A stretch of 64,000 bases of DNA from an uncultured Thermococci archaeon (GCA_964595645.1 CAZQQT010000011.1:28400-92399), one strand, 5' to 3'; positions 27,659 to 43,484 are shown, counted from the stretch's first letter. Made by a program: numbers and translations. The notes: generated by a model not told the origin, from the sequence alone.

Positions 27659-28339
27659 TTACCGTACTTCCGTGTCTACATACGGCTGTAGAATCTCCGC
27701 AAACTGCTGCAATACGTGAGGTGGATATGGAGCTATTTCCTCAAATTTTGGGTCCAGTGTGTTTTTCGGCACAAACTGCTGTAAATAGTACTTTCTTGCA
27801 TTGTTGATGAGCTTCCCAATATTCTCAGCGATTGTTGCGTTGTAAAACGGAGGAACAACAGTTGTTCTAAACTCATATGCGATATCGGAACTCTTCAAAA
27901 TGTCTATCGATTCTTCTATTACTGCAGTGTCCACCTCTACTCCTGCAGCTTCAGAGTATGCCTCCAGATCCGATTTTATATCCATGGAGACATAGTCCAA
28001 GAGTTCCTGGTCCAGCAGATTCCGAAGCATTGAGGGATTGCTCCCATTGGTGTCCAGCTTCACTAACAGCGAGATCTCCCTTATTCTCGTAATGAGATCG
28101 GGGAGATCGTTGTAGATAGTGGGCTCACCTCCTGTAATCACCACCCCGTCGATATACTTTTTTCTCGCCGCAAGTTGGTGAAGTATTTCTTCTTCATCCA
28201 GCGGAGGAAGCGTGTCCAGTACAAGATCTCTGTTATGGCAGTACGGACAGCGGAAATTACATCTAGATAAAAAAAGAACAGAAGAGATATTTTTTGGATA
28301 GTCTATTAGTGACGTTTTCTGAAAACCAGCGATCTTCAT
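27659..28339 (-). CDS. nrdG: Anaerobic ribonucleotide reductase activating enzyme (radical SAM)
   Basis: CNFRCPYCHN, TGGEP and DTNG motifs; overlaps nrdD. Confidence 0.92.
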   Translation of the reverse strand: MKIAGFQKTSLIDYPKNISSVLFLSRCNFRCPYCHNRDLVLDTLPPLDEEEILHQLAARKKYIDGVVITGGEPTIYNDLPDLITRIREISLLVKLDTNGSNPSMLRNLLDQELLDYVSMDIKSDLEAYSEAAGVEVDTAVIEESIDILKSSDIAYEFRTTVVPPFYNATIAENIGKLINNARKYYLQQFVPKNTLDPKFEEIAPYPPHVLQQFAEILQPYVDTEVR

Positions 28340-30447
28340 ATACGAGCCTTCACCTTATAACGAGCATTTTCTTTGCCGAGAGCCTTCCGCTCATGGAACT
28401 CCTGCCGTTCTCTGAACTCCTCCTTCTTCCCCTTGTTCCAGTTCTTCACAGGTCTGAGGTAACCAACTACGCGCGAATATACCTCTGTTTCGCTATTACA
28501 TTCGGGACATATAGGTGTTTCACCTGAAAGATACCCATGATCCTGGCATACACTGAATGTAGGCGAGATCGTGAAGTATGGGATTCCAAAGTTGTACGCA
28601 ATTCTCTGTACAAGTTTTTTGCAGCTCTCTTTCGACGATACGCGCTCACCTAAGAATCCATGGAATACAGTACCGCCGGTGTACTTTCTCTGGAGGTCCT
28701 CCTGCAGCTCCAGCGCTTCAAATATGTCATTGGTGTGCTCCACAGGAAGCTGTGTGGAGTTTGTATAGTAGGGCTCTCTTTTGCCAGCTGTGATAATATC
28801 AGGGAACATCTCTTTGTCTATTTTTGCGAGTCGGTAGCAGGTCCCTTCGGCGGGAGTGGCCTCTAAGTTGTAGAGGTTTCCTGTTTCCTCCTGGTACTCC
28901 TTCAGTTTTTCTCGCATGAAATCGAGGACGTTCAATGCGAACGCTCTGCCTTCTTCTGACACAATATCGACACCTAAAAAGTTCAGCAGTGCCTCATTCA
29001 TCCCGACCAAGCCGATTGTAGAGAAATGGTGATCGAGATCTCCTAGATAGCGTTTGGTATAAGGCAGTAATCTCTGGTTAATGTTTGCGGTCACCGCTTC
29101 TCTTTTTATCTCCAGGGACTTCTTGGCCAGATCCATCAGGCTGCCCAGTTTCCTGAAGAACTCATCTTCATCCTCTGCAAGATATCCAATTCTTGGTAAA
29201 TTGAGCGTGACGACACCCACACTGCCAGTGGACTCACCGGCACCGAACAATCCTCCTGTTTTATTTTTCAGGTCACGCAAATCCATCTGGAGTCTGCAGC
29301 ACATCGATCGTACATCTCCCGGTTTGAGATCACTATTAAGAAAGTTCTGGAAGTAGGGAAGTCCGTACTTTGCAGTCATCTCAAAGAGATGATCAGCATT
29401 TTCAGAGTCCCAATCGAAATCATGAGAAATATTATAGGTGGGAATGGGGAAGGTGAACACCCTATCTTTATAATCCCCCTCGTACATGACCTCCATAAAT
29501 GCCTTATTGATAAGATCCATCTCTTCCTGGAAATCATCGTAGGGTTCTTCCAGGAACGTATTGCCATGGATGGCTTGCTCACCCTTGAGATCCTCAGGGA
29601 CTGTCCAATCAAGGGTGAGGTTGGTAAACGGTGTCTGGCCGCCCCATCGGGACGCCACATTGAGACTGAATATGAACTGCTGAATCCGCTGTTTCACCTT
29701 TCTGTAGGTGAGATCGTCCTTTCTCACATAGGGAGCGAGATACGTATCGAATGAAGAGAATGCCATTGCTCCTGCCCATTCGTTCTGTAGTGTTCCTAGG
29801 AAGTTTATCATCTGTCCTAGTGCAGTGTCCATATGTTTCGCCGGTGCACTCTCTATTTTCCCTGGAACGCCGTTGAAACCTTCCATCAGCAGTTGCCGGA
29901 TGCTCCAACCGGCACAGTACCCTGTGATGCCCATAGAGAGATCGTGAATATGAAACGCGCCATCCTTGTGCGCCATGGCAATCTCGGGAGGATAGACATT
30001 GTGAAGTGTGTAGTTCGCTATCACGCTGCCTCCCACATGCATCAGCAGCCCCGAAAAGGAGTAGGCGATATTACTGTTCTCATTCACGCGCCAGTCGGAC
30101 TGCTTCAAATACCCTCCCATAGTCTCCTCGATATCCATTAGGAGTTTTTTTGTTTCTCTAATTTTCTTATGTTGTTCTCTATACAGAATATACGCTTTTG
30201 CTGTTCTGTAATGACCATTTTCTGTTAATACTTTTTCTACCGCATCCTGTACTTCCTCTACATGCGGTATTTTATCAGGAAATTTCTCCTCTAGAAGACG
30301 AACTACCTTTCCTGACAGTTTTTTGGAGAGTTCTCTATCATCTCCTCCAACTGCCTGTGCCGCACTAAAAATAGCATCGGTAATCCTCTCCCGATCAAAA
30401 TCCACTATTCGTCCATCTCGTTTTTCAACTTTTTCTATTTTTGACAT
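28336..30447 (-). CDS. nrdD: Class III anaerobic ribonucleoside-triphosphate reductase with ATP cone
   Basis: KRDG ATP cone; SMCCRL; EATPAE; C..HG...CP.C; YSRVVGY glycyl-radical loop. Confidence 0.96.
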   Translation of the reverse strand: MSKIEKVEKRDGRIVDFDRERITDAIFSAAQAVGGDDRELSKKLSGKVVRLLEEKFPDKIPHVEEVQDAVEKVLTENGHYRTAKAYILYREQHKKIRETKKLLMDIEETMGGYLKQSDWRVNENSNIAYSFSGLLMHVGGSVIANYTLHNVYPPEIAMAHKDGAFHIHDLSMGITGYCAGWSIRQLLMEGFNGVPGKIESAPAKHMDTALGQMINFLGTLQNEWAGAMAFSSFDTYLAPYVRKDDLTYRKVKQRIQQFIFSLNVASRWGGQTPFTNLTLDWTVPEDLKGEQAIHGNTFLEEPYDDFQEEMDLINKAFMEVMYEGDYKDRVFTFPIPTYNISHDFDWDSENADHLFEMTAKYGLPYFQNFLNSDLKPGDVRSMCCRLQMDLRDLKNKTGGLFGAGESTGSVGVVTLNLPRIGYLAEDEDEFFRKLGSLMDLAKKSLEIKREAVTANINQRLLPYTKRYLGDLDHHFSTIGLVGMNEALLNFLGVDIVSEEGRAFALNVLDFMREKLKEYQEETGNLYNLEATPAEGTCYRLAKIDKEMFPDIITAGKREPYYTNSTQLPVEHTNDIFEALELQEDLQRKYTGGTVFHGFLGERVSSKESCKKLVQRIAYNFGIPYFTISPTFSVCQDHGYLSGETPICPECNSETEVYSRVVGYLRPVKNWNKGKKEEFRERQEFHERKALGKENARYKVKARI

Positions 30448-30448
30448 A

Positions 30449-30898
30449 TTACTCCACCTTTAATTTCTTTAATTCTTCCTCAAATGAGCGTAAATCCTGA
30501 AATTCCTTACACACAGACGCAAACCGTACATAGGCCACATCATCCAATTCTTTTAATTTCTTCATTACGATATTCCCAATGGTCTTACTTTCTATTTTGC
30601 TTTTTCCAAGCTCTTGAAGCTCGTTCTCTACCTCATCAACAAACTTTTCGATCTCTTCCTCTGAGACCGGACGTTTCTCGCATGCCTTCTTGATGCCGAG
30701 CGCAAGTTTGTCCCGGTGATACTGTTCCTCTCGCCCATCCTTTTTCACTACAGCAAATCTCCTTTCTATTCTCTCATACGTGGTAAATCGTTTACTACAT
30801 TTTATGCATTCTCTCCTTCTTCTTACAAAGCTACCATTTTCGCTTTCTCTGGTATCTACCACTTTTGTTTCGCCGTAGGAGCAGTAAGGACACTTCAT
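30449..30898 (-). CDS. nrdR: Transcriptional repressor NrdR
   Basis: MKCPYC, RRRRECIKC..RFTTYE, ATP cone and AYVRFASV motifs. Confidence 0.96.
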   Translation of the reverse strand: MKCPYCSYGETKVVDTRESENGSFVRRRRECIKCSKRFTTYERIERRFAVVKKDGREEQYHRDKLALGIKKACEKRPVSEEEIEKFVDEVENELQELGKSKIESKTIGNIVMKKLKELDDVAYVRFASVCKEFQDLRSFEEELKKLKVE

Positions 30899-30902
30899 TC
30901 CA

Positions 30903-30950
30903 CCACAACATATAGTATTGCAATACAATTTAATACACTATATATAGTTT
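30903..30950. promoter_or_regulatory. Tandem NrdR boxes
   Basis: ccaCaAcATATaGtat (30903-30918) and acaCtAtATATaGttt (30935-30950), 32 bp apart; both match the acaCwAtATaTwGtg consensus. Confidence 0.85.
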
Positions 30951-31027: not shown

Positions 31028-33475
31028 CTAGATGAGAGTGAGAAGGTACTCTATCAGCGCAATTGTAAACTCTAAATTATCTCCATATTTTATTCCTGTG
31101 GTAAACATCTGGGACGATCCCGAACACACAAGATACCCGTCCCCTACCTCCCTCAACGTAATGATCGCAAAATCCTCTATCCTCCCATCAGATGTTGCTG
31201 CATAACTACTCTCATTCCCCCGTAAAAGTACAGTAGTCTCTCTATAGTTCAGTACACCACCAGAAATATTTAACTCAGAGACATCTTCATAAAATGGGAA
31301 ACTCGGAAACTCTTTTACCCGCACATAGTATGATCTCCCACTGTTGCTTTTATCATCGCGAAAACTGGATTTGATGAATGTTGTGCCGTACTTCTTGGAG
31401 ATTCTATTGAGATCTATGTTTAGATACGTATGGTAGGTACCGCAGAGTATCAGCACGCCACCGTCCCTCATATACTCTTCAAGTTTCATGACTTCCTTTT
31501 CATTGAAATCTTCCCCGGGGTTTGTAACGATCACAATGTCGTACTCATCTAATGCTGGAAACTCATTGGTGGTATACGTCCCAATGTTATTCTCCTTCAA
31601 ACGGTCTTTTAACACTTCATTTAGAGTATAGTATTGATCTTTGTTCTGCAGAAAAAGAACTTTAGCTTTATATTTTTCTACATCCTCTTTATACGGTTTT
31701 AAAGCGTTTAATCTCTCTTTTATTTTTTTCAATTTTCTATTTTTTACTATAAACACGGAATTAATATTTTCAAATGTCTTTTTTATAGAGAGGAACTCCT
31801 CTGAGTCACAGAGTACTGTGTTTTCTAGTTCTTCAATTTTCTTGGCGATTTCTTCCTCCAATTTTTTATTGGTGCTAAATATAGAAGAAACGTATACCCT
31901 CTTTTGTAACTCCTGCGGATCCTCTGGTTCTTCTGGCTCCGGTATATAGCCTGGAGTGCCCCCTAAGGGACCGTATCTCCACACTCCATTGATTTTTTCC
32001 AGTGAGTGTCCTTCTTTTGCATTTCCACTATACTTTACCTCATCCAATATCACCTCTCCTTGCATAATCACGACGTGGTCGCCGGAGTTGGATAGAGAGA
32101 GATTCCCGTTGACCCTCAGTTCATTCTCTACCTCCACCTCATCGAAGACATGTGTATACTCATCCGTGATCACTGCACATTCTCCTGGAGGGATTGGATC
32201 TCCTAGTATCTCATCACCTCCACACTGCAGATTTGTGGGATCGTACAGGGTATCACTGGAATTGTATACTTCCACCCACTCGTAATAATAGTCAGATTTT
32301 CGAGGATTGTACATCACTTCTGTGAGAATTATTGGAGGATCGAGCGAGTACAACCTGTTGTACTCTCCGGGCGTGGGCTTTGTCTCTGCAAAGGACGTAT
32401 TTGAGAGTATTGGAAACCGTGCTAGTGTCCCGTGATTCCACACTGCGTGGTCCATCATTCCGTTATACTCAAGCAAGACTTCACTGAATCTCTCATTGAT
32501 CACAATATCTGGGTGAAATCCAAACTTGCTGAAAAACGAGGATTCATCGTTGGATATCACTAAAAATTGATCCACATAAGTAGTAAATGTTCTTATCGTT
32601 TCCAGTGAAAGAGAAAAAGATACCTCTCGCGGTATTGGCGTGTACAGCTCTATAAAATTCTCTGAAATCTCACTAATCACAAAAAAATCGTTGATAGTGC
32701 CCAAAGACTCATACGTATCGTGGAGATCGGAAGTATCCCATGAATACCCATAGACAACATTGCCATCGGGAATCCGCTGAATGCTCTCCTGGAGATCATG
32801 GCCGTAGTACCCTACCATATCAATGAGCTCTCCTGACGCATTGAAGAGATAGAGAACGTCCTCTTCTTGGAGGGTTATTGTCGACTCAAAAACGCGGACG
32901 TTTCGGGAATCTATCGTCCCTGTCAGATAAAATATCCCATCGCCATCAGAGAGAAAGAAATCGTCAAGATCTATCGACACTGTACGAGGATTGTACACCT
33001 CTATCGATTTTTCGTAGTACTCGTTAATCCGTATGGAATTTCCTAGATTCACTGGAGGAGCATCGTTTTCCATTCCTTTTGTAGGTGTGAGATCAAGATT
33101 CCACTCTCCATTTACAAAGACACAGGACTCGTAACTCGGTGGAGCAGGAGCGTACCCTCTGTAACCGTAGGAGACACTATCAATGACACTATCATTATCC
33201 TTCAGTACAATGGTATCGCCGTTATTGTCAAGAAATCCAGATGGTTCGAGGATATGGTATCCATACGCGGGTATTTCCTCAGTCGTGAACTCAATTATTC
33301 CTTCTGATGTTTCTATCGAGTATCCATCCAACTCAACAGATGCAGAAGAAGGATTATATAATTCAATCCATTCACCTCCCTTTATACAGAACTCATTGAT
33401 TCGTATCTCCTCTTGCGATGCTCCAATATCTATTAAAGAGCATACAATGAGGATTATTACTATATACCTCCTCAT
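31028..33475 (-). CDS. Secreted multi-lamin-tail-domain protein with C-terminal GATase-like/DUF4350-like domain
   Basis: Signal peptide; repeated INE...EWIELYN, L.N.GD and TPG/TKG..N LTD motifs; C-terminal Y...GG.L domain. Confidence 0.7.
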   Translation of the reverse strand: MRRYIVIILIVCSLIDIGASQEEIRINEFCIKGGEWIELYNPSSASVELDGYSIETSEGIIEFTTEEIPAYGYHILEPSGFLDNNGDTIVLKDNDSVIDSVSYGYRGYAPAPPSYESCVFVNGEWNLDLTPTKGMENDAPPVNLGNSIRINEYYEKSIEVYNPRTVSIDLDDFFLSDGDGIFYLTGTIDSRNVRVFESTITLQEEDVLYLFNASGELIDMVGYYGHDLQESIQRIPDGNVVYGYSWDTSDLHDTYESLGTINDFFVISEISENFIELYTPIPREVSFSLSLETIRTFTTYVDQFLVISNDESSFFSKFGFHPDIVINERFSEVLLEYNGMMDHAVWNHGTLARFPILSNTSFAETKPTPGEYNRLYSLDPPIILTEVMYNPRKSDYYYEWVEVYNSSDTLYDPTNLQCGGDEILGDPIPPGECAVITDEYTHVFDEVEVENELRVNGNLSLSNSGDHVVIMQGEVILDEVKYSGNAKEGHSLEKINGVWRYGPLGGTPGYIPEPEEPEDPQELQKRVYVSSIFSTNKKLEEEIAKKIEELENTVLCDSEEFLSIKKTFENINSVFIVKNRKLKKIKERLNALKPYKEDVEKYKAKVLFLQNKDQYYTLNEVLKDRLKENNIGTYTTNEFPALDEYDIVIVTNPGEDFNEKEVMKLEEYMRDGGVLILCGTYHTYLNIDLNRISKKYGTTFIKSSFRDDKSNSGRSYYVRVKEFPSFPFYEDVSELNISGGVLNYRETTVLLRGNESSYAATSDGRIEDFAIITLREVGDGYLVCSGSSQMFTTGIKYGDNLEFTIALIEYLLTLI

Positions 33476-33503: not shown

Positions 33504-33914
33504 CTACACTGACGCTTTCTCCAAGCTCACGGTGACTAACGCCACAGAGATCTTTAACTCTTCAGCTATCTGCTCCGGTGTGTACCCTCTACCGTGCAGC
33601 CGGATAACATCACTGAGATCGGGAAGTTCGTTATTGCTCTTCAGTCCAAGACTGGTTCGTCGGTAGTGGATGGCTGGTGGTGTGAGACCCATCTCACGCG
33701 CTATCTCCTTATCGGTGTACCCTTGATGATACAGCTCCAAAAATGTCTCTCTGTCGAATTTCTTTTCTTTTTTATGATAGTTATTTTCGAGTCCAAGCCG
33801 TTTTCTTCGATAATTCACAGAACTCTGAGAAACCTCCAATTCCTCAGCAATCTCCCGATCGGTCAACCCCCGTGAGTGGAGCTCAATGATCTCCTCATCC
33901 GTGATCTTGGGCAT
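33504..33914 (-). CDS. Protein of three tandem HTH repeats
   Basis: GLTDREIAEEL / GYTDKEIAREM / GYTPEQIAEEL. Confidence 0.8.
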   Translation of the reverse strand: MPKITDEEIIELHSRGLTDREIAEELEVSQSSVNYRRKRLGLENNYHKKEKKFDRETFLELYHQGYTDKEIAREMGLTPPAIHYRRTSLGLKSNNELPDLSDVIRLHGRGYTPEQIAEELKISVALVTVSLEKASV

Positions 33915-34041
33915 ATCTTCCTTATGAAGAGGGTAATAAAAACTTTACTATTGGGTTGCTATGTTACCGTGGTCATCATCGCAATTTTGAAATACTTTCA
34001 CTTCTTTCTTCTCCAATCGCTGATCGACTACATTACCAAGA

Positions 34042-34377
34042 TCAGAAGCAAGTCTTTTCTATACCTAATAAACTATTAAATTGTTCCATTCTACGTGGCC
34101 ATGCAGATAATAATATGGCACAATAAAAATTATATAGAACAAGAAGACTAAATACTGGAAAAATATAGAGAATATCTCCTTCTTCTCTTTTATATTTATA
34201 TATTATTTGCTTTAAACCTAGCAACAAAACTATCCCCACAAGATAATTCCGTAAAGATTCTAGAGAAAGCCAGCTATAAAATACATAAATATACAATCCG
34301 AAAACTACAATTGCTATCATAGTATACGAAAGATATACTGTTTTCTTATTCCGTTCCCATAGTCTTACAAAGTTCAT
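34042..34377 (-). CDS. AT-rich small membrane protein (putative immunity, cassette 4)
   Basis: Three hydrophobic segments; begins about 30 nt after the orphan C-terminal cassette. Confidence 0.55.
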   Translation of the reverse strand: MNFVRLWERNKKTVYLSYTMIAIVVFGLYIYVFYSWLSLESLRNYLVGIVLLLGLKQIIYKYKREEGDILYIFPVFSLLVLYNFYCAILLSAWPRRMEQFNSLLGIEKTCF

Positions 34378-34405
34378 AATATTTTTCCTATATTTTCCTT
34401 TTTTT

Positions 34406-34930
34406 CTATACTACGCAAGGACATATGTCCTTTATGTGGTCAGTGACATCGTTTATTTGTCTTTTTAAGTCCCTGTTTTCAGTTTTGTACCATTCTATTG
34501 CTGGTGGGATATTTTCAATAGATTTTCTCTGTCCGTAGAGATGCATTTCGTTCCCTACAGCATATGTGACTATGCCCACAACAACAATATCTACTTTTAT
34601 TACTGCTTTTACCCCCTCTTTGATTGCTGTCCAAACAGTCCGCAGTGTCCATAGAGATTTAACATCTGTTCTATACCAATCTCTATTATCAAGAGTATCT
34701 TTCATATCCTTCCTCAGTGATCGAAGTTCATCCTTCCAGTGCTCTATTAACTCGTTATTTTCATTGATTTTATTCTTTCCAGCTTTTAAGGATCTCAGCA
34801 ATTCCCGTACCTCAGGATCATCAGGTGCTGGTGTCTCTGTTGGCGTCGGCGTCTCCGGTGGACACTCTCCATAGTCTTCAGAACGCGAGTCATCTGTTTT
34901 ATTGTATCCTTTTTCACCACGCAGGAGAGA
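34406..34930 (-). pseudogene. Orphan C-terminal cassette (no ATG before the linker)
   Basis: The frame opens after a TGA at 34931-33: EDYGECPPETPTPTETPAPDDPEVR, then coiled coil, hydrophobic hairpin and a terminal CPC. Confidence 0.65.
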
Positions 34931-35084
34931 TCACATAGAGGAGCAGAGCCATGATAGAGTTGACAAAGTTATTTCATAATTTATGACTTTATTGATTGAA
35001 AGAGTATTTTATTTCCTTCTAAAGGTTGAAGCCGTTTTGTAAAGATCGAGTCTCCCATTTCTTGCAAAATAACTAAAGATAACA

Positions 35085-35504
35085 TTAGCACCCACTATTG
35101 TTGCGATCCTCTTTGTATACATTGAGTCTACCCCCACTGTAGAAAAGAAAGGGAAGAAAGAAAGCACCACCATAACATCCAAACAAAAACATTGACCCGC
35201 CCCAATCTATTAATACCAGCCCTAAAAATAAAGGCATCGCAGATGCGAGAATATATCCTCTGAGATCTTTGCTGACCTCTTTCCACTCTACATGATATTT
35301 TTCCTTTTTGTAGATACCAATTCTTCCTGTGCTATAAAGATATAAAAACGCCAGCAGTGCGCCCGAAAATCCACCTAATAAGAGATAACCAAAGAAGTAC
35401 ATAGACATCCATGTGAATATAATACCAAAAGATAATAAAAAAAATAAAATAAGGAAAAAGGTCTTTGTGTCGATATTTAGGGTTGATATATTTTTGGTTG
35501 TCAT
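35085..35504 (-). CDS. Membrane protein with internal duplication (putative immunity, cassette 3)
   Basis: ATG directly after the upstream fragment's stop; two similar halves ending YSTGRIGIYK / YSGGRLNVYK. Confidence 0.6.
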   Translation of the reverse strand: MTTKNISTLNIDTKTFFLILFFLLSFGIIFTWMSMYFFGYLLLGGFSGALLAFLYLYSTGRIGIYKKEKYHVEWKEVSKDLRGYILASAMPLFLGLVLIDWGGSMFLFGCYGGAFFLPFLFYSGGRLNVYKEDRNNSGC

Positions 35505-35505
35505 G

Positions 35506-35748
35506 TTATCCACCACAGTACTTGCTACAATCTTGTGTCTGATCATCTTCACAATCTTCAACTGCATCTTTCCACTCTCCAATTTTTTCTCCCAATTCTT
35601 GAACCTCTTCCCAGTACTCATTCGCTTTTTCTCTAAGTTGCTTTGCTACCAGCGGATTGCATCCTTCACTGTACTCACACTCACCGGCCACACCGTAGTA
35701 CTCTCTGTACATTTGGTAGACATTGCCATACTGTGTCTTAGTGCTCAT
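35506..35748 (-). pseudogene. Orphan C-terminal fragment with VYQ.YR...GECEY module
   Basis: Homologous in DNA and protein to the 36159-36356 fragment; ends DCSKYCGG. Confidence 0.55.
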
Positions 35749-36148
35749 TGTCGCGATCCTCGTTATATTTCCTATTCTTAATCCACATTAGAACTGGTGT
35801 CCCTATAAAAGCCATTAGCAGTACGAGACATACGAGTATTACTCCGATCAATTTGATATATCTTACGTAAACTTCACTGAGGTATCCCATCTTTGCACAG
35901 ACTTCGCCTAAGCTGTAAAATAAGAGTCCACATCCTAAAAGGGTATGTTCATAAAACTCCATATTGGATATTTCATCCTGTCCCAGAATAACTGCCAGAA
36001 ACCATCCTCCCGAAAGAATAGGAAAAAGCATCTCTTCTGTGCTCCAATCAACATCGCCGATTTTCCAACTCCAGAATATGGCAAAACTCATTAAAAATAT
36101 AGAAAAAAAGAATAAAAAAATTCTTCTTCGTGTTCTTTTAAATCTCAT
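35738..36148 (-). CDS. 4-TM membrane protein (putative immunity, cassette 2)
   Basis: GGTGATT RBS overlaps the upstream stop; four hydrophobic segments. Confidence 0.65.
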   Translation of the reverse strand: MRFKRTRRRIFLFFFSIFLMSFAIFWSWKIGDVDWSTEEMLFPILSGGWFLAVILGQDEISNMEFYEHTLLGCGLLFYSLGEVCAKMGYLSEVYVRYIKLIGVILVCLVLLMAFIGTPVLMWIKNRKYNEDRDNEH

Positions 36149-36158
36149 CGTTAATCAC

Positions 36159-36356
36159 CTAGTTTAGTATACAGCTGCAATGCTCTTCTATCCACACTTG
36201 TAACTTATCGATCTCAAAGTTCAATCGAATAATCTGCTCCTCCGTCACCCTCTCTTCCCCGGTGTACTCGCACTCGCCGTCCTCGCAGTACCAGTCTCTG
36301 TAGGTCTGGTAGACCTTGCTGTTCTTATCAATCATTTGCTGCACCCTCGTTCCCAT
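36159..36356 (-). pseudogene. Orphan C-terminal fragment (YCEDGECEY module + helix + CSC end)
   Basis: VYQTYRDWYCEDGECEY resembles CYCGDGECDGY in the carrier; ends HCSCILN. Confidence 0.55.
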
Positions 36357-36922
36357 ACACTTGCCAGGCCTTGCAGGCGTTCTACATTATTCTCGAGGGC
36401 CTCTGCTCGTTCAATGCATTCATCCTCTGACTCACCTTGTTCATATGTTATATATCCAATTAATGAAGTAAGACCTAATGCTCCTGCCGCAGTACCAGGA
36501 CCAGGACAAATGCAAGTTCCTATGAATCCACCAACACCTGCACCTAATGCTATTAACTGACTTCTAGTCTCTGCAGTATCATACGTGTCAGCTAAACTCC
36601 TCAATCTCTTTGCCTCATCTCTCATAGCTGTAGCTCTTTTCCTGCATTCTTCTAACCTTTCACGATCACACGGACATCCGTTGCCTATCTCTCCAGTGCT
36701 TCCGTTCAGATGTGGGCAGGTATCGCATTTATTTCCGACTCCATCGTTATCTTTGTCCCACTGATTCGCGTTGGGGTTGTTGGGACAGTTGTCCTTGTGA
36801 TCTGGCACACCATCACCATCTGAATCCTGTTCCGGCTCCGGACTCGGTGTCGTTGTTGGTGTCGGCGTCTGGGAGGGTGTCGAGTCGTCACTTTCTTCGT
36901 AGTCCTCGGGACAGGTCAGAAG
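36332..36922 (-). pseudogene. Orphan C-terminal cassette: Pro/Thr linker + thrombospondin type-3-like Ca-binding repeats + Gly-rich hydrophobic hairpin
   Basis: The frame opens after a TGA at 36923-25: TCPEDY...TPTPTTTPSP, DSDGDGVPD..DNCP..N..Q.D.D.DGVG..CD, GCPC and LGAGVGGFIG...GTAAGALG. Confidence 0.65.
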
Positions 36923-37039
36923 TCATCGTTGCCTTCGGATTCCATGGAGTTATACATAGAGGCTGTTGATTATCTCATCTCTCTTCTATTTCTTTTTTAT
37001 GATCGTTTTTTCTATAAGTCTTTTGTTTTTTAATCTGCG

Positions 37040-37345
37040 TTAAATATATTTTTTATATGAAATTAAAATGATGAATATCGCCAACAAACTCAACATGAAG
37101 ACTAAAACATAAATAATATCAATGTTCAAAATTTCTAGGATTAGAAAACTTATTGGGAGGAAAAGAACTAAAAAAAAAGATCTTTTTGGTGTTTTGATAC
37201 GTTTGTATTTAACTGTCAGCACAAAATATAATTCCGCTATAGAAATTGGAACTGCAATTCCTTTCTGAAACAAAAGTGAATATAAAAAGATAAATATAAG
37301 GATTCCACTCAAAATTGTTATATGAATCCTCTTTTTGGATTCCAT
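37040..37345 (-). CDS. 4-TM AT-rich membrane protein (putative immunity, cassette 1)
   Basis: TAATG overlap with the carrier's stop; AGGAGG RBS. Confidence 0.65.
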   Translation of the reverse strand: MESKKRIHITILSGILIFIFLYSLLFQKGIAVPISIAELYFVLTVKYKRIKTPKRSFFLVLFLPISFLILEILNIDIIYVLVFMLSLLAIFIILISYKKYI

Positions 37346-40155
37346 TATGACCCTCCTACTTTCAAGGCACATGAACACGTTTCTAGTAGTTCTTTTGTGT
37401 ATTTTTCAGCAAGATCGCCATGATAATGAAGAAGCTTTATATGTTTATTTATTTGTATTTCTATACCGTTCGCTTTTATTTTGTTATATGCATATAATGT
37501 TGCATAAGCATCCAAAGTAAGAAATTTTGTCAATAAAGTGTCCTGTAGAATCTCTTTTGGATCCACTTCTGCACCACCAAGTTTCTTTATTGCGGATAGT
37601 ACAGGTCCAGCTAGTGTCGAGATCCACCACTCAACGTTATCGGGCGAAAAATTCTTATTAAAATTTCCTGCCCATTTCTTAGCGTCTTTTTCGTATTTCT
37701 TTTTTTTATTCTCGTATTCTTCCATATGTTTACTAATGAACTCTTCTTCTGCATCGATAAGGTACTTTTGTGTATCTATATCCTCCATCAATTTTCTCAC
37801 CTCAGGGTCATTCTTACATCCACATTCATCCGGCGGTATCGTGGTCGGACTTGGGGTACTCGTTGGTGCTGGTGTTGTAGTAGGCGTCGGGGGACACTCC
37901 CCACAGTCCTCGTTCCCGTTACATGACCCATCACCGCAGTAGGGATCTGGATCATCGCAGTCCCCACAGTCTTCGGGGCAGTCGTGACACCCCTCGCCTC
38001 TATAACCATCGCACTCTCCATCGCCGCAGTAGCAGGTGTCGGCGCCAAGAGCGAGTTCTTTGCCTTCGGGAGGCGGTGCCACATGAGGCAGGGGGAGTCT
38101 CTAAATCCTGCGGATTTCAATGGGAGGTAGGGGACCGGTCCTATAATCAGGTCCTTGTCCGGATCCTCCGGTTCTATCACAATTTCCGGTTGGATGTCGT
38201 TGAGCGTCTGGTACCTGACGGTCCACGCGTAGTTAAATGTGTCCTGCCAGGTGGGATCCTCTTCCGTAGCTTGGGATGCGGTCCACTTCATACTGTTGTT
38301 GTACAGCTTCTGCGTGAATGCGTCATCTCCTGCGATGGAGAGGTAGAGGTAGACCAAGGCAGCGTAGAAATCGTCCTTGTACTCGATGTGCCCATGCTCT
38401 ACCAGGTAACTTGCGTTGTTGAGGATATTCTCTATCTCTGTACGACTGGGGTTCTGGATATCGATGTTCTGCCATGAGCTCTTGAGGTTCTCCTGGACCG
38501 TGGTAATCTCTGTGCCCGTCGTCCTGCCAAACTCGCTTTCCCGCGTGTAGATGCCGAAGGTAAACATCACAGAGTCGATCTGGAGGAGGCCTAGATCGCT
38601 GTAGACATTTTTGAGGTCTACGAAGTTTTGGAGGATACGTTTCTCCTTTATTATTGATTTATTGTTCAAAATATCGGTCCTGAGCTGTTCTATCTCGCTA
38701 TCAGCAAGGCCGTAGTCGCTGAGGAGTATCTTCACCTCCTCTGGGAACTCGTTCTCTATCGTGGTAAAGGCTTCGTCTAGTTCTGTGTTGCTAAGATGCT
38801 CGAACTGCTGTACTGCCTCTCGCTGCGAGGCGAACCCACGAATCTCATTCATGTACCGGTGGTTCCACGCCGATTTCTTCACGAGATCTATCTTCGTGTC
38901 CAGAAGGTCGGCGAGAATCGCTGGATCTTTCTTGTCTTGGAAGGTAGTACTGATCGATTCTTTCTAACTCCTCATCGATGAGCTGTGACTCCTCCGTCAC
39001 GTTTGCCTGCCACTCACTCATCTTTTTTTCCAAGGCGCCTACGGTAAGAGATCCTTCCTCCGGCATGCGGATGGGCTCCTTGCCGTTCTTGAACAGGAAG
39101 TAGTACTCGCATTCCTCGTAGGGAAGTGTGATGCTGTACAGCGCGCCGTTCCACTGGTACTCATCGTCATCCTCACAAACAAGATCGTAGGCTACATTGT
39201 TGAGATAGACCTTTGCACTGGATGGTGGATCGTTGTTGCGATCGGTGTATCGAACTTGGAATGTTGTGGTTTCATCTTCTACACGTACAACCGGTAGTGA
39301 TAGTCGCGCCGGCGTCTCGGGGACCGTGTGGAACGACTGTAAACTCCATGAGATTTTTGTTCCTTCCACGGTGCTCAACGTGAGCTCCGTGGCACCGTTT
39401 ATTTTTTCTTTTGGGATTTTTATGGTTGCCTTGCCGTTCTGGAGGTTTGCTGCAACGGTTTCGGAGGAGTTCGTTCGATCCGTACTGTATCGTACCTCCG
39501 TCGGGTACAGTGTTGTCTTTTTCCTGTAGTAGATCCTGAAACAGAAATCTTTGTCGGGATCGAAACCGGCACGGCCATTGGCATAGCCTGAGCCGTAGTA
39601 CCACTGCACTCCCCGGAGTTCCAGGGTGTAGGTTCCGTTCAGTTTGAGGTTTGGGACTGCGAAAGAAAGCCATTTCGTCGTTCCCGCGGGAACTGTTACC
39701 TGATCGTGGTAGAGTGTGGTGTCGCTTTTTATTGAGAGGGATACTGTAGAGTCAGAAGGTGGCTTGGGAATCGGTGTGATGGGAACAGGTATTGGATCTC
39801 CGCTGAGGGACGAGGATAGTCGTAATGGTCTTGGTACCCGTACGTACACTTCTATCTTTGTTACCTCTCCCTTGCAGGTAAATGTTTGAGTGGGTGTTCC
39901 CCCTCTACAGCTCTCCACAGTTTCCTGTGTAAGGATGCGTTCTTCGTACCTCTCTGTAGCTTCACCTTTCACCGTGAGAACAGCATGATCCATATCATTC
40001 GCAGTGATGGTGAATGTCTCAGTGCCAATACATTCGCCACTCATTTCATCAATATACTTTGCTGGTCTATCAAAGGAATAGACCGGTAGAACAGCAACTA
40101 AAAGTATCACTACAACAAGCAACGCTGTAATCTGTATCCTCCCACTTCCCTTCAT
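37345..40155 (-). pseudogene. Large secreted carrier protein (signal peptide, beta-rich domains, CGDG Cys repeats, Pro/Thr linker, variable C-terminal domain), split by frameshifts
   Basis: Three overlapping ORFs (38845-40155, 37797-38882, 37345-38082) read as one protein, with frame changes near 38945 and 38090-38130. Confidence 0.65.
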
Positions 40156-40293
40156 ACTTACAACTCCTTAGTTAATAGGGATAGAGGGATTTAAAAGTTT
40201 TTCTATTTATCATGACAAATATTTCCAAATACTTGAAATGGAAGGTTTTTTTATCCCTGCCAATCTTTTGTAAGAAATCGAAAAGAAGAAGAG

Positions 40294-40368
40294 TGGGCCC
40301 GTCGAGATTTGAACTCGAGGCCTCCTGGTTATCAGCCAGGCGCTCTGACCAATCTAAGCTACGAGCCC
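40294..40368 (-). tRNA. tRNA-Ile(GAT)
   Basis: GGGCTCG/CGGGCCC acceptor stem; CCTGG-CTGATAA-CCAGG anticodon arm. Confidence 0.95.
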
Positions 40369-40413
40369 ATCTAAAGTATGTAAAAATAAGAAAATTTAAA
40401 AAGGTTGCGCTTG

Positions 40414-41763: not shown

Positions 41764-41906
41764 CAGATCACCTTACCAGATATACCGGATGATACTTAAA
41801 AAGGTTTGCAACTTCCGAAACAACGCTTTCTACGTTCGCTACATGGTGTAATTTTGCAGTGGAAAAGTTTTTAAGCAACGAGGGAAAACTAAGGATAGGT
41901 GAAAAG

Positions 41907-43484
41907 ATGAAAAAGATAACTATTGTACTTATATGCTTTCTTATTCTTTCTGTAGGAAGTATAGAAAAAAAAGAGCTTTATACGACCAATGGGAAACAGA
42001 TCGTGGAAATCACGATGGATAAACAGCACGATCTCACGTTTGTTCTCGACGTCGAAACTGGAAAGGGGTATATTGATGGAGCCTACGATCTGGGGATAGA
42101 TATCACAAAATACAATCAGCGGGGTGTGTTCTACATCTGTAGCGATGACTCGTACGTGTATGTTGTCTCCAATGTTGATTTAAAAAATGTGATAGGAGGA
42201 ACAATGCCCACAACCATGATCGATGCAGAGTTCCTCACAACGGAGAAAAAAAACTTTTTAAACGCAAACGTTACAGTATCCAAAGAAATAAAGGAATTAA
42301 AAGAACTGAGTATTGAATCAAATATTTCAAAACAGATTAATATTAAGGTAGATGCGACTTTTTTGTATGAAGATAGTGTAGACATAAAAAACCTAACAGC
42401 AACAATAAAAAAAGAAAATAATACTCTTATCATCGATACAACGGGGACGGTAGCAGCGAAAGTTCCTGGGTTAGAATTAATGACAGTCTCGATGCTTGAA
42501 ACAGTACTTAAATCCCAGTACAATCTCGATGTGACCATCCACGAGTTTGCATACACAAATAATGGAATATCATTTGATGCATCGGTAACGATGAAAAAAG
42601 AGGATCTCGAAGGATATGGAGATCTTCTTGCAATACTGCACGATGGATTGATTGAAATGGGGAAAGAAGGGAAGTATTATACTCTGACAACGGATCTCAC
42701 ACTGGAATCCGAGGCCCCAAAGAAGATTGCCACATACATCGAGCAGTACACGGAGGGAGAAACGTCGTATGAAGAATATATTACTCGTCTCGAAGCGATA
42801 AAAGAGAGTGGGGCTGTATGGAGTTCAAAAGTGAAAGTAGACTGTAAAGACACTATCCAAGGAGATGTGGAGATGGAATTCCAAGACTTCGACAGCTACT
42901 ACAGAAAAGCAAGAGAGATGGGTGTGAATGTACGGCTGAACAAAGGGAAAATCGATGCAGAAATCAATAATAATGTAAAATCAGACATTGCCGTAAAATA
43001 TGAATCCCAATCCACCATAGAAGTTGCTGGGGAAGTAAAAGAAAAACTTTATATAAAGGGAAATCTTGATCTTGCTACAAAAGATATAAAGTCCCTAAAA
43101 GACGCAGGAATCACGTATGTTGCGTTTGACGGGAGAAAACTCTATATAGAGTTTGAAGATATAGAGAAAATAAAAAAAATACCCTTCATCGACCTACCGT
43201 TTCTGCAAGAACCGACAAAGATCGATCATTTCGAGCATATGGAGATAAAACAGGTGAGGGTAGAAAAACCAAGCGGTATAGATGATGAACTGGAGTACCT
43301 TGGGTTTGGGAAAGACAGAACACTGCTTATTGTAGGGGCGTTGATCGTATTGATTGTCGTAGGGAGTATTGCAGCGCTGTATCTACTTAAAAGGAAAGGA
43401 AAAGAAGAGAAATACTGTGAGTACTGTGGATTTAAACTAAAGGAAGGAGCTGAAGAGTGCCCCAACTGTGGAAAAAAAGTTTAA
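41907..43484 (+). CDS. Exported protein with C-terminal TM anchor and cytoplasmic zinc ribbon
   Basis: Signal peptide MKKITIVLIC; TM segment; C..CG........CP.CG. Confidence 0.7.
   Translation: MKKITIVLICFLILSVGSIEKKELYTTNGKQIVEITMDKQHDLTFVLDVETGKGYIDGAYDLGIDITKYNQRGVFYICSDDSYVYVVSNVDLKNVIGGTMPTTMIDAEFLTTEKKNFLNANVTVSKEIKELKELSIESNISKQINIKVDATFLYEDSVDIKNLTATIKKENNTLIIDTTGTVAAKVPGLELMTVSMLETVLKSQYNLDVTIHEFAYTNNGISFDASVTMKKEDLEGYGDLLAILHDGLIEMGKEGKYYTLTTDLTLESEAPKKIATYIEQYTEGETSYEEYITRLEAIKESGAVWSSKVKVDCKDTIQGDVEMEFQDFDSYYRKAREMGVNVRLNKGKIDAEINNNVKSDIAVKYESQSTIEVAGEVKEKLYIKGNLDLATKDIKSLKDAGITYVAFDGRKLYIEFEDIEKIKKIPFIDLPFLQEPTKIDHFEHMEIKQVRVEKPSGIDDELEYLGFGKDRTLLIVGALIVLIVVGSIAALYLLKRKGKEEKYCEYCGFKLKEGAEECPNCGKKV

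Follow-up and report, generated by a model that had tools for sequence, protein, structure and literature searches.

The 64,000-nucleotide (nt) stretch of DNA from an uncultured Thermococci archaeon that was analyzed here (GCA_964595645.1, CAZQQT010000011.1:28400-92399; referred to as the window) carries on its minus strand, from position 40155 down to position 34042, a gene for a long secreted carrier protein with a helical C-terminal tail, followed by an array of orphan tails and small membrane protein genes. Comparisons with other contigs of the same genome (C2, C4, C6, C8, and C13), with a sister species (G001, whose carrier-encoding contig C49 is locus L016), and with metagenome loci (including L024 and L026) suggest that the locus in the window probably belongs to a lineage-specific polymorphic system of the effector/immunity type with at least three loci. 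From these comparisons we infer, at a probability of roughly 0.55, that the system is a polymorphic membrane-attack effector with in-membrane immunity. A preliminary description of this DNA, made from the sequence alone, had proposed the logic of polymorphic toxin systems for the locus; the conserved head, variable tail, co-varying downstream gene, orphans, and shared junction on which that proposal relied were all found, but no known toxin domain was.

Homologs of the intact G001 carrier comprised 10 proteins of 914 to 971 amino acids (aa) among 5.8 billion, all from uncultured euryarchaeal metagenome-assembled genomes, and seven further carrier loci were found in metagenomes. Across 133 genomes that belong to the same class, only the window's own family was found to have the N-terminal part, the other matches covering no more than the TSP3 repeats. 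The intact carrier (∼950 aa) consists of a conserved N-terminal part of 700 aa, a variable stalk, and a hypervariable tail of ∼150 aa; nine full-length homologs share 43 to 48% identity over ∼700 aa, beyond which they could not be aligned except for the terminal Cys motifs. When relatives were examined in the way that the preliminary description had suggested, they were found to keep the N-terminal part and to carry different C termini, each followed by a different small membrane protein gene.

Three independent pairings of a tail type with a membrane gene type recur across loci or species. In G001 (five copies) and on C2, TM3-type genes stand behind class 1 tails ending in WERGC (the classes are defined below), and a 14-codon remnant of such a gene follows the orphan tail O1 in the window. 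TM4-type genes come directly after tails of the O4 type, in the window as well as on C8. A tail that ends in YRKGCTE and a membrane gene of the MKLSEK type form the main pair in L024 and an orphan pair in L026, two loci from one metagenome whose main pairs differ. An orphan in one locus may thus be the main tail elsewhere, as in the case of the L026 orphan and L024 or of the window's O1 and G001. The sister loci on C8, C13, and C2 display the same tail classes, junction, membrane gene families, and array grammar as the window, which alone keeps the carrier and the cassettes on one contig and alone has a visibly broken carrier.

The sequences on both sides of the junction point to the way in which tails change. 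The main tails on C8 and C13 share 98% DNA identity over 64 nt that encode the junction, GCWEGCCDPCPCSHDPEV, and show no similarity after it, and the window's O4 matches C8 only from the DPEV codons onward, the stalks before them being different. These breaks show that tails are exchanged through recombination at the GC.C/DPEV junction. Swapping can also be limited to the tip within a hairpin: the main and orphan tails of C13 are identical at 13 to 14 of 15 positions in both flanking helices and at 2 to 4 of 15 positions in the core. In G001 (L016:4328-6941), five tandem TM3-type genes with 35 to 46% mutual identity lie behind the intact carrier, each preceded by a scrap of a class 1 tail end (...VW.RGC...); this array seems to preserve, like fossils, the traces of tails that were replaced one after another.

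Two architectural classes of tails can be told apart, the identity within a class being 20 to 60%. In class 1, ...NGC(P/T)C precedes the tail, ...GC ends it, and a stretch of ∼38 residues within it is hydrophobic and Gly-rich; in class 2, the tail lies behind C.C..DPEV and ends in C(P/S/A)C. The earlier statement that the tails diverge completely after the linker is therefore not correct, as both classes are predicted Cys-clamped helical hairpins, i.e., variants of related designs. In an AlphaFold 2 (AF2) model of the window's main tail (six-row alignment; predicted local distance difference test [pLDDT] score, 72), helices 11 to 62 and 110 to 153 form an antiparallel hairpin with Cys pairs at both ends of its sequence, the tip being uncertain (pLDDT, <50). 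Judged by eye, a tail in protein P0015 is ∼60% identical to this one, and P0010 contains a clear relative. When 1.84 billion representatives were searched exhaustively with a profile, only seven class 2 tails were returned, all on members of the carrier family or its orphans, and a word-indexed search with a single class 1 tail region as the query found only P0001 and P0003 and no other kind of carrier. A Foldseek search with the tail returned nothing at E ≤ 0.001. Attachment by a PGF-CTERM/archaeosortase signal was also considered; a Thr-Pro linker is present, but that motif is absent, the C termini ending in C.C or GC without a terminal transmembrane helix.

The membrane-attack reading is favored because the tips are hydrophobic in most tails (Kyte-Doolittle peaks of 1.68 in O1 and 1.95 in O4), all partners are membrane proteins, and lone partners outlive their tails. 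The carrier would be exported by means of its Sec signal peptide and would display the tail on a stalk of Cys-rich repeats, Ca-binding TSP3 repeats, and a Thr-Pro linker. The tail itself is predicted to be an antiparallel helical hairpin with a Cys pair at each end (GC.C at one end, C.C or GC at the other) and a Gly/Ala-rich hydrophobic tip. Each tail type is followed by its own family of genes for small multipass membrane proteins, often with overlapping stop and start codons, with spare tail-plus-membrane-gene cassettes and lone membrane genes piling up downstream. The displayed or released hairpin would insert its tip into the membranes of neighbors that lack the matching membrane protein and permeabilize them, and the matching protein would bind the tip inside the membrane and so shield the producer. 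Integral-membrane immunity proteins are known to neutralize pore-forming colicins and the CdiA-CT toxin of Escherichia coli EC93. A more specific version, offered tentatively, is that of a contact weapon that arose independently in archaea. A coiled-coil hairpin, clamped by disulfides or metal and presented by the Sec-exported surface protein, would puncture neighbors with its exchangeable hydrophobic tip and be disarmed in the membrane; its specificity would be rewritten by exchange either of the whole tail, at the GC.C/DPEV junction, or of only the tip, and the Asp-Pro bond at the junction might be a release site.

Several observations weigh against membrane attack. In the window's main tail, the tip is not hydrophobic, the Kyte-Doolittle value staying at or below 1.0 in every 19-residue segment, and the carrier in the window is a pseudogene (see below), so this locus is unable to deliver anything at present. 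No Pfam, NCBIfam, or PDB family matches any tail or membrane partner; the VIA-align matches of the tail are generic coiled-coil hairpins (Z ≤ 9.4, lower than the Z of ∼13 that long helices would be expected to reach by chance). The dN/dS ratio (nonsynonymous to synonymous substitution rates) between the window's TM2 gene and its C13 paralog is ∼1. No processing protease or release mechanism is evident. Finally, the tails vary within two related designs rather than among unrelated enzymatic folds, which fits a recognition module equally well.

Such a module, serving in self/nonself or kin recognition without killing, is the main alternative, although a considerably less probable one. The hairpin tip would then dock with the matching membrane protein, whether of a sister cell or of its own cell, and match or mismatch would control adhesion, aggregation, or exchange, as in the Proteus IdsD/IdsE system and in the hypotheses put forward for the VARTIG modules of Thermococcales. 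The tail variation is contained within two conserved scaffolds and concentrated in the tip, the membrane protein partners co-vary with the tail, and no toxin domain was detected, all of which would suit recognition; this is also one of the hypotheses of the VARTIG authors for a similarly organized archaeal module (PMC8416519). In addition, TSP3 repeats occur in myxobacterial proteins of cell cohesion and outer membrane exchange (weak NCBIfam matches to MtsC and TraB). However, a one-to-one identity tag does not predict arrays of lone membrane genes, such as the five TM3-type paralogs of G001 or TM2 and TM3 in the window, and orphan spare tails are a hallmark of toxin switching. Retention of lone membrane genes after tail loss is what is expected for protection against the weapons of others.

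It is improbable, but conceivable, that the hairpin is a mere membrane anchor, the small membrane proteins are its assembly or stabilizing partners, and the variation reflects escape from viruses or predators for which the complex serves as a receptor. A Gly-rich hydrophobic stretch of ∼38 residues between two helices, in a protein exported through a Sec signal peptide, would serve as a re-entrant anchor, and other large secreted proteins are encoded nearby. Receptor escape, however, would be expected to change the exposed distal domains, yet the N-terminal 700 aa are the conserved part of the carrier; several tails, including the main tail of the window, have no segment hydrophobic enough to span a membrane; and spare anchors with private partners have no obvious use.

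According to Zhang et al. (2012, PMC3482391), archaea almost entirely lack classical polymorphic toxin systems and the immunity families that belong to them. Archaeal polymorphic toxin systems have been predicted, usually with DNases or RNases as the toxin moieties, but none had been characterized experimentally as of 2021 (PMC8416519). The present locus resembles the bacterial CdiA-CT/CdiI, Rhs-CT/RhsI, and MafB systems (PMC3482391), and specifically their Sec/type II secretion system (T2SS)-type class, in that a long secreted protein heads a co-directional array. Further shared features are a conserved N terminus with an exchangeable C-terminal module behind a short conserved junction, a private and co-varying downstream gene, orphan modules with the same junction, lone “immunity” genes, and a location in a variable island. 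It differs from them in that its tails match no known toxin domain and follow only two related hairpin designs and in that all partners are membrane proteins outside the described immunity families. No YD/Rhs, FHA/VENN, LXG, MafB-N, HINT, or other listed trafficking or processing domains were detected here; a Pfam search of the window's open reading frames (ORFs) yielded TSP_3 only, the precomputed Pfam assignments of P0001 to P0010 consist of none or PF02412, and the NCBIfam matches of P0001 are to TSP3 repeats only. The preliminary description had been right to see no Rhs/YD, CdiA, or LXG motif and to suspect an undescribed archaeal family, and MafB elements can be added to those missing. 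The logic is that of polymorphic toxin systems, without any of the carrier, processing, toxin, or immunity families that define them.

Among archaeal systems, the closest likeness in organization is to VARTIG of Thermococcales (Makarova et al. 2021, PMC8416519), in which a large secreted protein with Ig-like domains also comes first, the C-terminal part is hypervariable through recombination, small and mostly membrane proteins follow whose type tracks the variant, and no toxin domain is recognizable. The VARTIG variable part, however, is an Ig domain (in an arCOG07710-type protein), whereas here it is a predicted Cys-clamped helical hairpin behind a Cys-rich/TSP3 stalk, and orphan tail cassettes sharing a junction, which are clear here, set the present loci further apart. 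A search with the carrier profile against 97 genomes of the large sister family, which judging from genome counts is presumably Thermococcaceae, gave 0 matches and thus no detectable homology to VARTIG.

The proposed combination of a helical effector that has a hydrophobic hairpin with an adjacent small multipass membrane protein is shared with colicins A, E1, and Ia (Cai/Cei/Iia) and with the EC93 CdiA-CT/CdiI pair; by analogy with these, the partner would be the protective component here. Colicin Ia includes a long coiled-coil hairpin. There is, however, no sequence match, the structural resemblance is generic (VIA-align Z scores of 8.5 for XaxA and 8.3 for colicin Ia, within the chance range for helical hairpins), and no ten-helix colicin pore domain was recognized here. 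Paired Cys clamps are not a known feature of colicin- or CdiA-CT-type toxins.

Archaeal cell-cell conflict systems are almost unexplored, and the present one is compact and made solely of undescribed parts, i.e., a carrier of ∼950 aa, tails of ∼150 aa, and partners of 100 to 200 aa. The natural “swap” experiments recorded in these genomes make a comparison of cognate and noncognate pairs straightforward. If the hairpins are membrane active, they would constitute a new family of small, modular, Cys-stabilized pore formers with in-membrane inhibitors; if they are not, they would represent a new archaeal recognition code, and either outcome would show how uncultured mat archaea discriminate among their neighbors.

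With regard to the carrier itself, the conserved part was modeled with AF2 on the C4 paralog (16-row alignment; pLDDT, 80), where it comprises four beta-sandwich domains (residues 35 to 387) and a helical domain (residues 389 to 664). VIA-align matched this N-terminal model only to single Ig-like/beta-sandwich domains (Z of 8 to 12), which are generic matches. A relationship to fusogens resembling class II viral fusion glycoproteins, which were among the top Foldseek rows, was rejected, as the TM-scores were 0.07 to 0.16. The variable stalk is built from CGDGxC...CPxDC repeats, a VYQ.YR.YYC.(N/D)GEC.Y module, TSP3 repeats (recognized by Pfam), and Thr-Pro linkers. A profile search of the PDB gave matches only to the TSP3 repeats, an ESM Atlas search with the carrier and one class 1 tail gave no usable match, and the carrier, tail, and partner families all appear to be undescribed. 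Just downstream of the cassette array on C13 (L020:1470-2447, minus strand), a candidate extracytoplasmic disulfide oxidoreductase that might act on the Cys-rich carriers is encoded. This protein of 326 aa has a signal peptide, a transmembrane helix at its C terminus, and thioredoxin-fold domains that include a CSHC motif (Pfam Thioredoxin_3, E = 2e-11).

The window's genome contains two more carrier paralogs, at the starts of contigs C4 and C6, both truncated at one and the same residue. C4 and C6 begin with identical sequences of 55 nt, and identical sequences of 55 nt are likewise present at the start of C8 and the end of C13; the assembly graph therefore forks on a shared stalk, and the tails and arrays missing from C4 and C6 are on C8 and C13.

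In the window, the genes follow each other on the minus strand, from 40155 to 34042, in the order carrier, TM1, O1, O2, TM2, O3, TM3, O4, and TM4 (all features of this array given below are on that strand). The carrier is not the one long gene that had been described but is spread over three stop-to-stop frames (38845-40167, 37797-38963, and 37345-38100), the first and last segments being in one frame and the 850-nt helical-domain segment between them being shifted; translation from the start codon terminates at 38845. The frameshifts were placed by three-frame reading and by tblastn against the intact 960-aa G001 protein. Segment A (38940..40155) encodes a Sec-type signal peptide (residues 1 to 32) and four beta-sandwich domains, and its ORF (38845-40155) shows 53 to 60% identity to the C4 and C6 paralogs and to G001. 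The first frameshift (38934..38949) is one extra base, TACTAC-CTTC-CAAGAC, where homologs read YYIQDKK. Segment B (38100..38933), in the shifted frame, encodes the helical domain and is 70% identical to residues 437 to 717 of the G001 carrier. At the second frameshift (38087..38099), a C5 run is one base short and the frame of segment A resumes. The variable stalk (37810..38086), a region that differs among homologs, comprises three CGDGxC...CPxDC repeats (CGDGxC repeats at 37894-38034) and the Thr-Pro linker (37840-37893), and the class 2 main tail (37348..37809) follows with the DPEVR junction (37789-37809), a long helical hairpin, and a CSC end. The domain order given earlier holds for the signal peptide, beta-rich part, Cys repeats, linker, and DPEVR but left out the helical domain of ∼275 aa.

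Frameshifts in a metagenomic contig could signify that the carrier is really intact and that the cassette array is a repeat misjoin; such an assembly or sequencing artifact is, however, very improbable. It would agree with the fact that the other two copies of the carrier in this genome break off where contigs end, with overlaps of an identical 55 nt, and with the location of one frameshift in a C5 run. Logan contigs from two microbial-mat runs (35× and 66×), however, span 35953-40400 without a mismatch or gap, the first frameshift lies outside any homopolymer, and the order of the array and its junctions are seen again at further loci and in other species. Because contigs built independently from two runs show the same sequence, the carrier copy in the window is a genuine pseudogene of recent origin rather than a product of misassembly.

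The first partner gene, TM1 (37040..37345), encodes a small membrane protein and lies in a 27% GC trough; the main-tail stop codon overlaps its ATG at 37343-37347, in accordance with the TAATG coupling and the AT-rich membrane gene recorded earlier. Orphan O1 (36332..36922) consists of a linker, TSP3 repeats (Pfam TSP_3), a GCPC junction, and a class 1 tail with a Gly-rich hydrophobic hairpin and a WERGC end; it has no start codon near its 5′ end, belongs to the type that the intact carrier of G001 has as its main tail, and is 60% identical to a copy on C2. O2 (36159..36356) is a chimeric remnant that joins the first 14 codons of a TM3-type gene to a stalk module (VYQ.YR.WYCEDGECEY) and the last ∼30 residues of a class 2 tail with a CSC end. 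TM2 (35738..36148) is a membrane gene with paralogs on C13 (77%) and C8 (62%). In Logan unitigs, depth is doubled over 35757-35982, and two alleles with 8 differences, each at half depth, form a bubble at 35781-35908; a nearly identical stretch in common with the C13 copy of TM2 (87% over 470 nt overall), possibly a gene conversion tract, would be consistent with this.

O3 (35506..35748) is a short ORF whose own ATG overlaps the TM2 stop codon; it encodes a GECEY stalk module and a short Cys-ended helix, and its junction also precedes a full orphan tail on C13. TM3 (35085..35504) encodes a membrane protein with duplicated GR(L/I)x(I/V)YK halves, and a word-based search with it returned only the query itself. 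Orphan O4 (34406..34930) carries the ECPP/Thr-Pro linker, the DPEVR junction, and a class 2 tail with a hydrophobic tip and a CPC end; the tail is 77% identical in amino acids (E = 4e-82) and 85% identical in DNA to the main tail at the start of C8. The membrane gene that follows it, TM4 (34042..34377), encodes 111 aa as opposed to 117 to 170 aa in its three C8 relatives, with which its C-terminal part does not align. Every partner gene encodes a membrane protein, and the partners are 100 to 200 aa long.

The motifs quoted in the preliminary description are all present on the minus strand where they had been placed, namely EDYGECPPETPTPTETPAPDDPEVR at 34805-34879, TCPEDY...TPTPTTTPSP at 36839-36916, YCEDGECEY at 36264-36290, and GECEY at 35662-35685. 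Of the four orphans, however, O2 and O3 are short chimeric remnants, and the term “start-less” used in that description suits O1 but neither O2 nor O3, which have ATG codons at 36356 and 35748, respectively. Different small membrane genes do follow different tails, but they are not all unrelated, the TM1 and TM4 types being distantly related. The dN/dS ratio is 0.26 both for O4 compared with C8 and for O1 compared with C2, so the orphan tails are still under constraint, and lone membrane genes remain open while their tails decay. The locus in the window thus looks like a decaying member of the system, with a broken carrier and two chimeric cassettes but with O1, O4, and the membrane genes still open.

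The whole locus occupies a variable island of 6.3 kb (33950..40290) between a helix-turn-helix (HTH) gene (33504-33914) and the gene for tRNA-Ile (GAT) (40293..40368, minus strand; found by ARAGORN and Rfam), the 3′ end of which abuts the island. G001 has the same flanks (NrdD, NrdR, a lamin-tail domain [LTD] protein, and the HTH gene on one side and tRNA-Ile and a 449-aa gene on the other) with no carrier, and ∼370 nt separate the HTH gene from the tRNA at this empty site (contig C57, locus L043). Contig X3, from an unrelated run of another study, joins position 33949 directly to 40290. Because the site is empty in G001 and the island is skipped in X3, the 6.3-kb locus is a strain- or species-specific island next to the tRNA-Ile 3′ end. 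There is no support for a classical integrative element, since the island was found to contain neither an att-like direct repeat of the tRNA-Ile 3′ end nor an integrase. In G001, the interval from the HTH gene to tRNA-Ile (L043:9200-9580) contains at least three identical tandem units of ∼68 nt, interrupted by an N run; each starts with ∼13 nt (GGGCCCGTCGAGA) that also form the tRNA 3′ end, and these units could be integration scars or a tRNA-end-derived repeat.

The HTH gene, the last conserved gene before the island, encodes 136 aa on the minus strand with three tandem HTH units (HTH_23, Sigma70_r4_2, and HTH_7). Beside it, the gene at 31028-33475 (minus strand) encodes a secreted protein of 815 aa, in which three lamin-tail domains (LTD, E = 2e-27) are combined with a C terminus resembling DUF4350/ABC_transp_aux; it is conserved next to the island site in G001 with 61% identity. 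An archaeal NrdD-like anaerobic ribonucleotide reductase gene followed by an NrdR-like repressor gene (28336-30928, minus strand; names given from inspection of the translations, not from a family search) is likewise syntenic in G001. Some relatives are labeled “Methanomicrobia,” but this does not imply a methanogen, mcrA being absent from the window's genome (99.96% complete). The 541-aa product of a gene at 41859-43484 (plus strand) has a signal or anchor at its N terminus, a transmembrane helix at its C terminus, and a cytoplasmic zinc ribbon, which is the only family that it matched.

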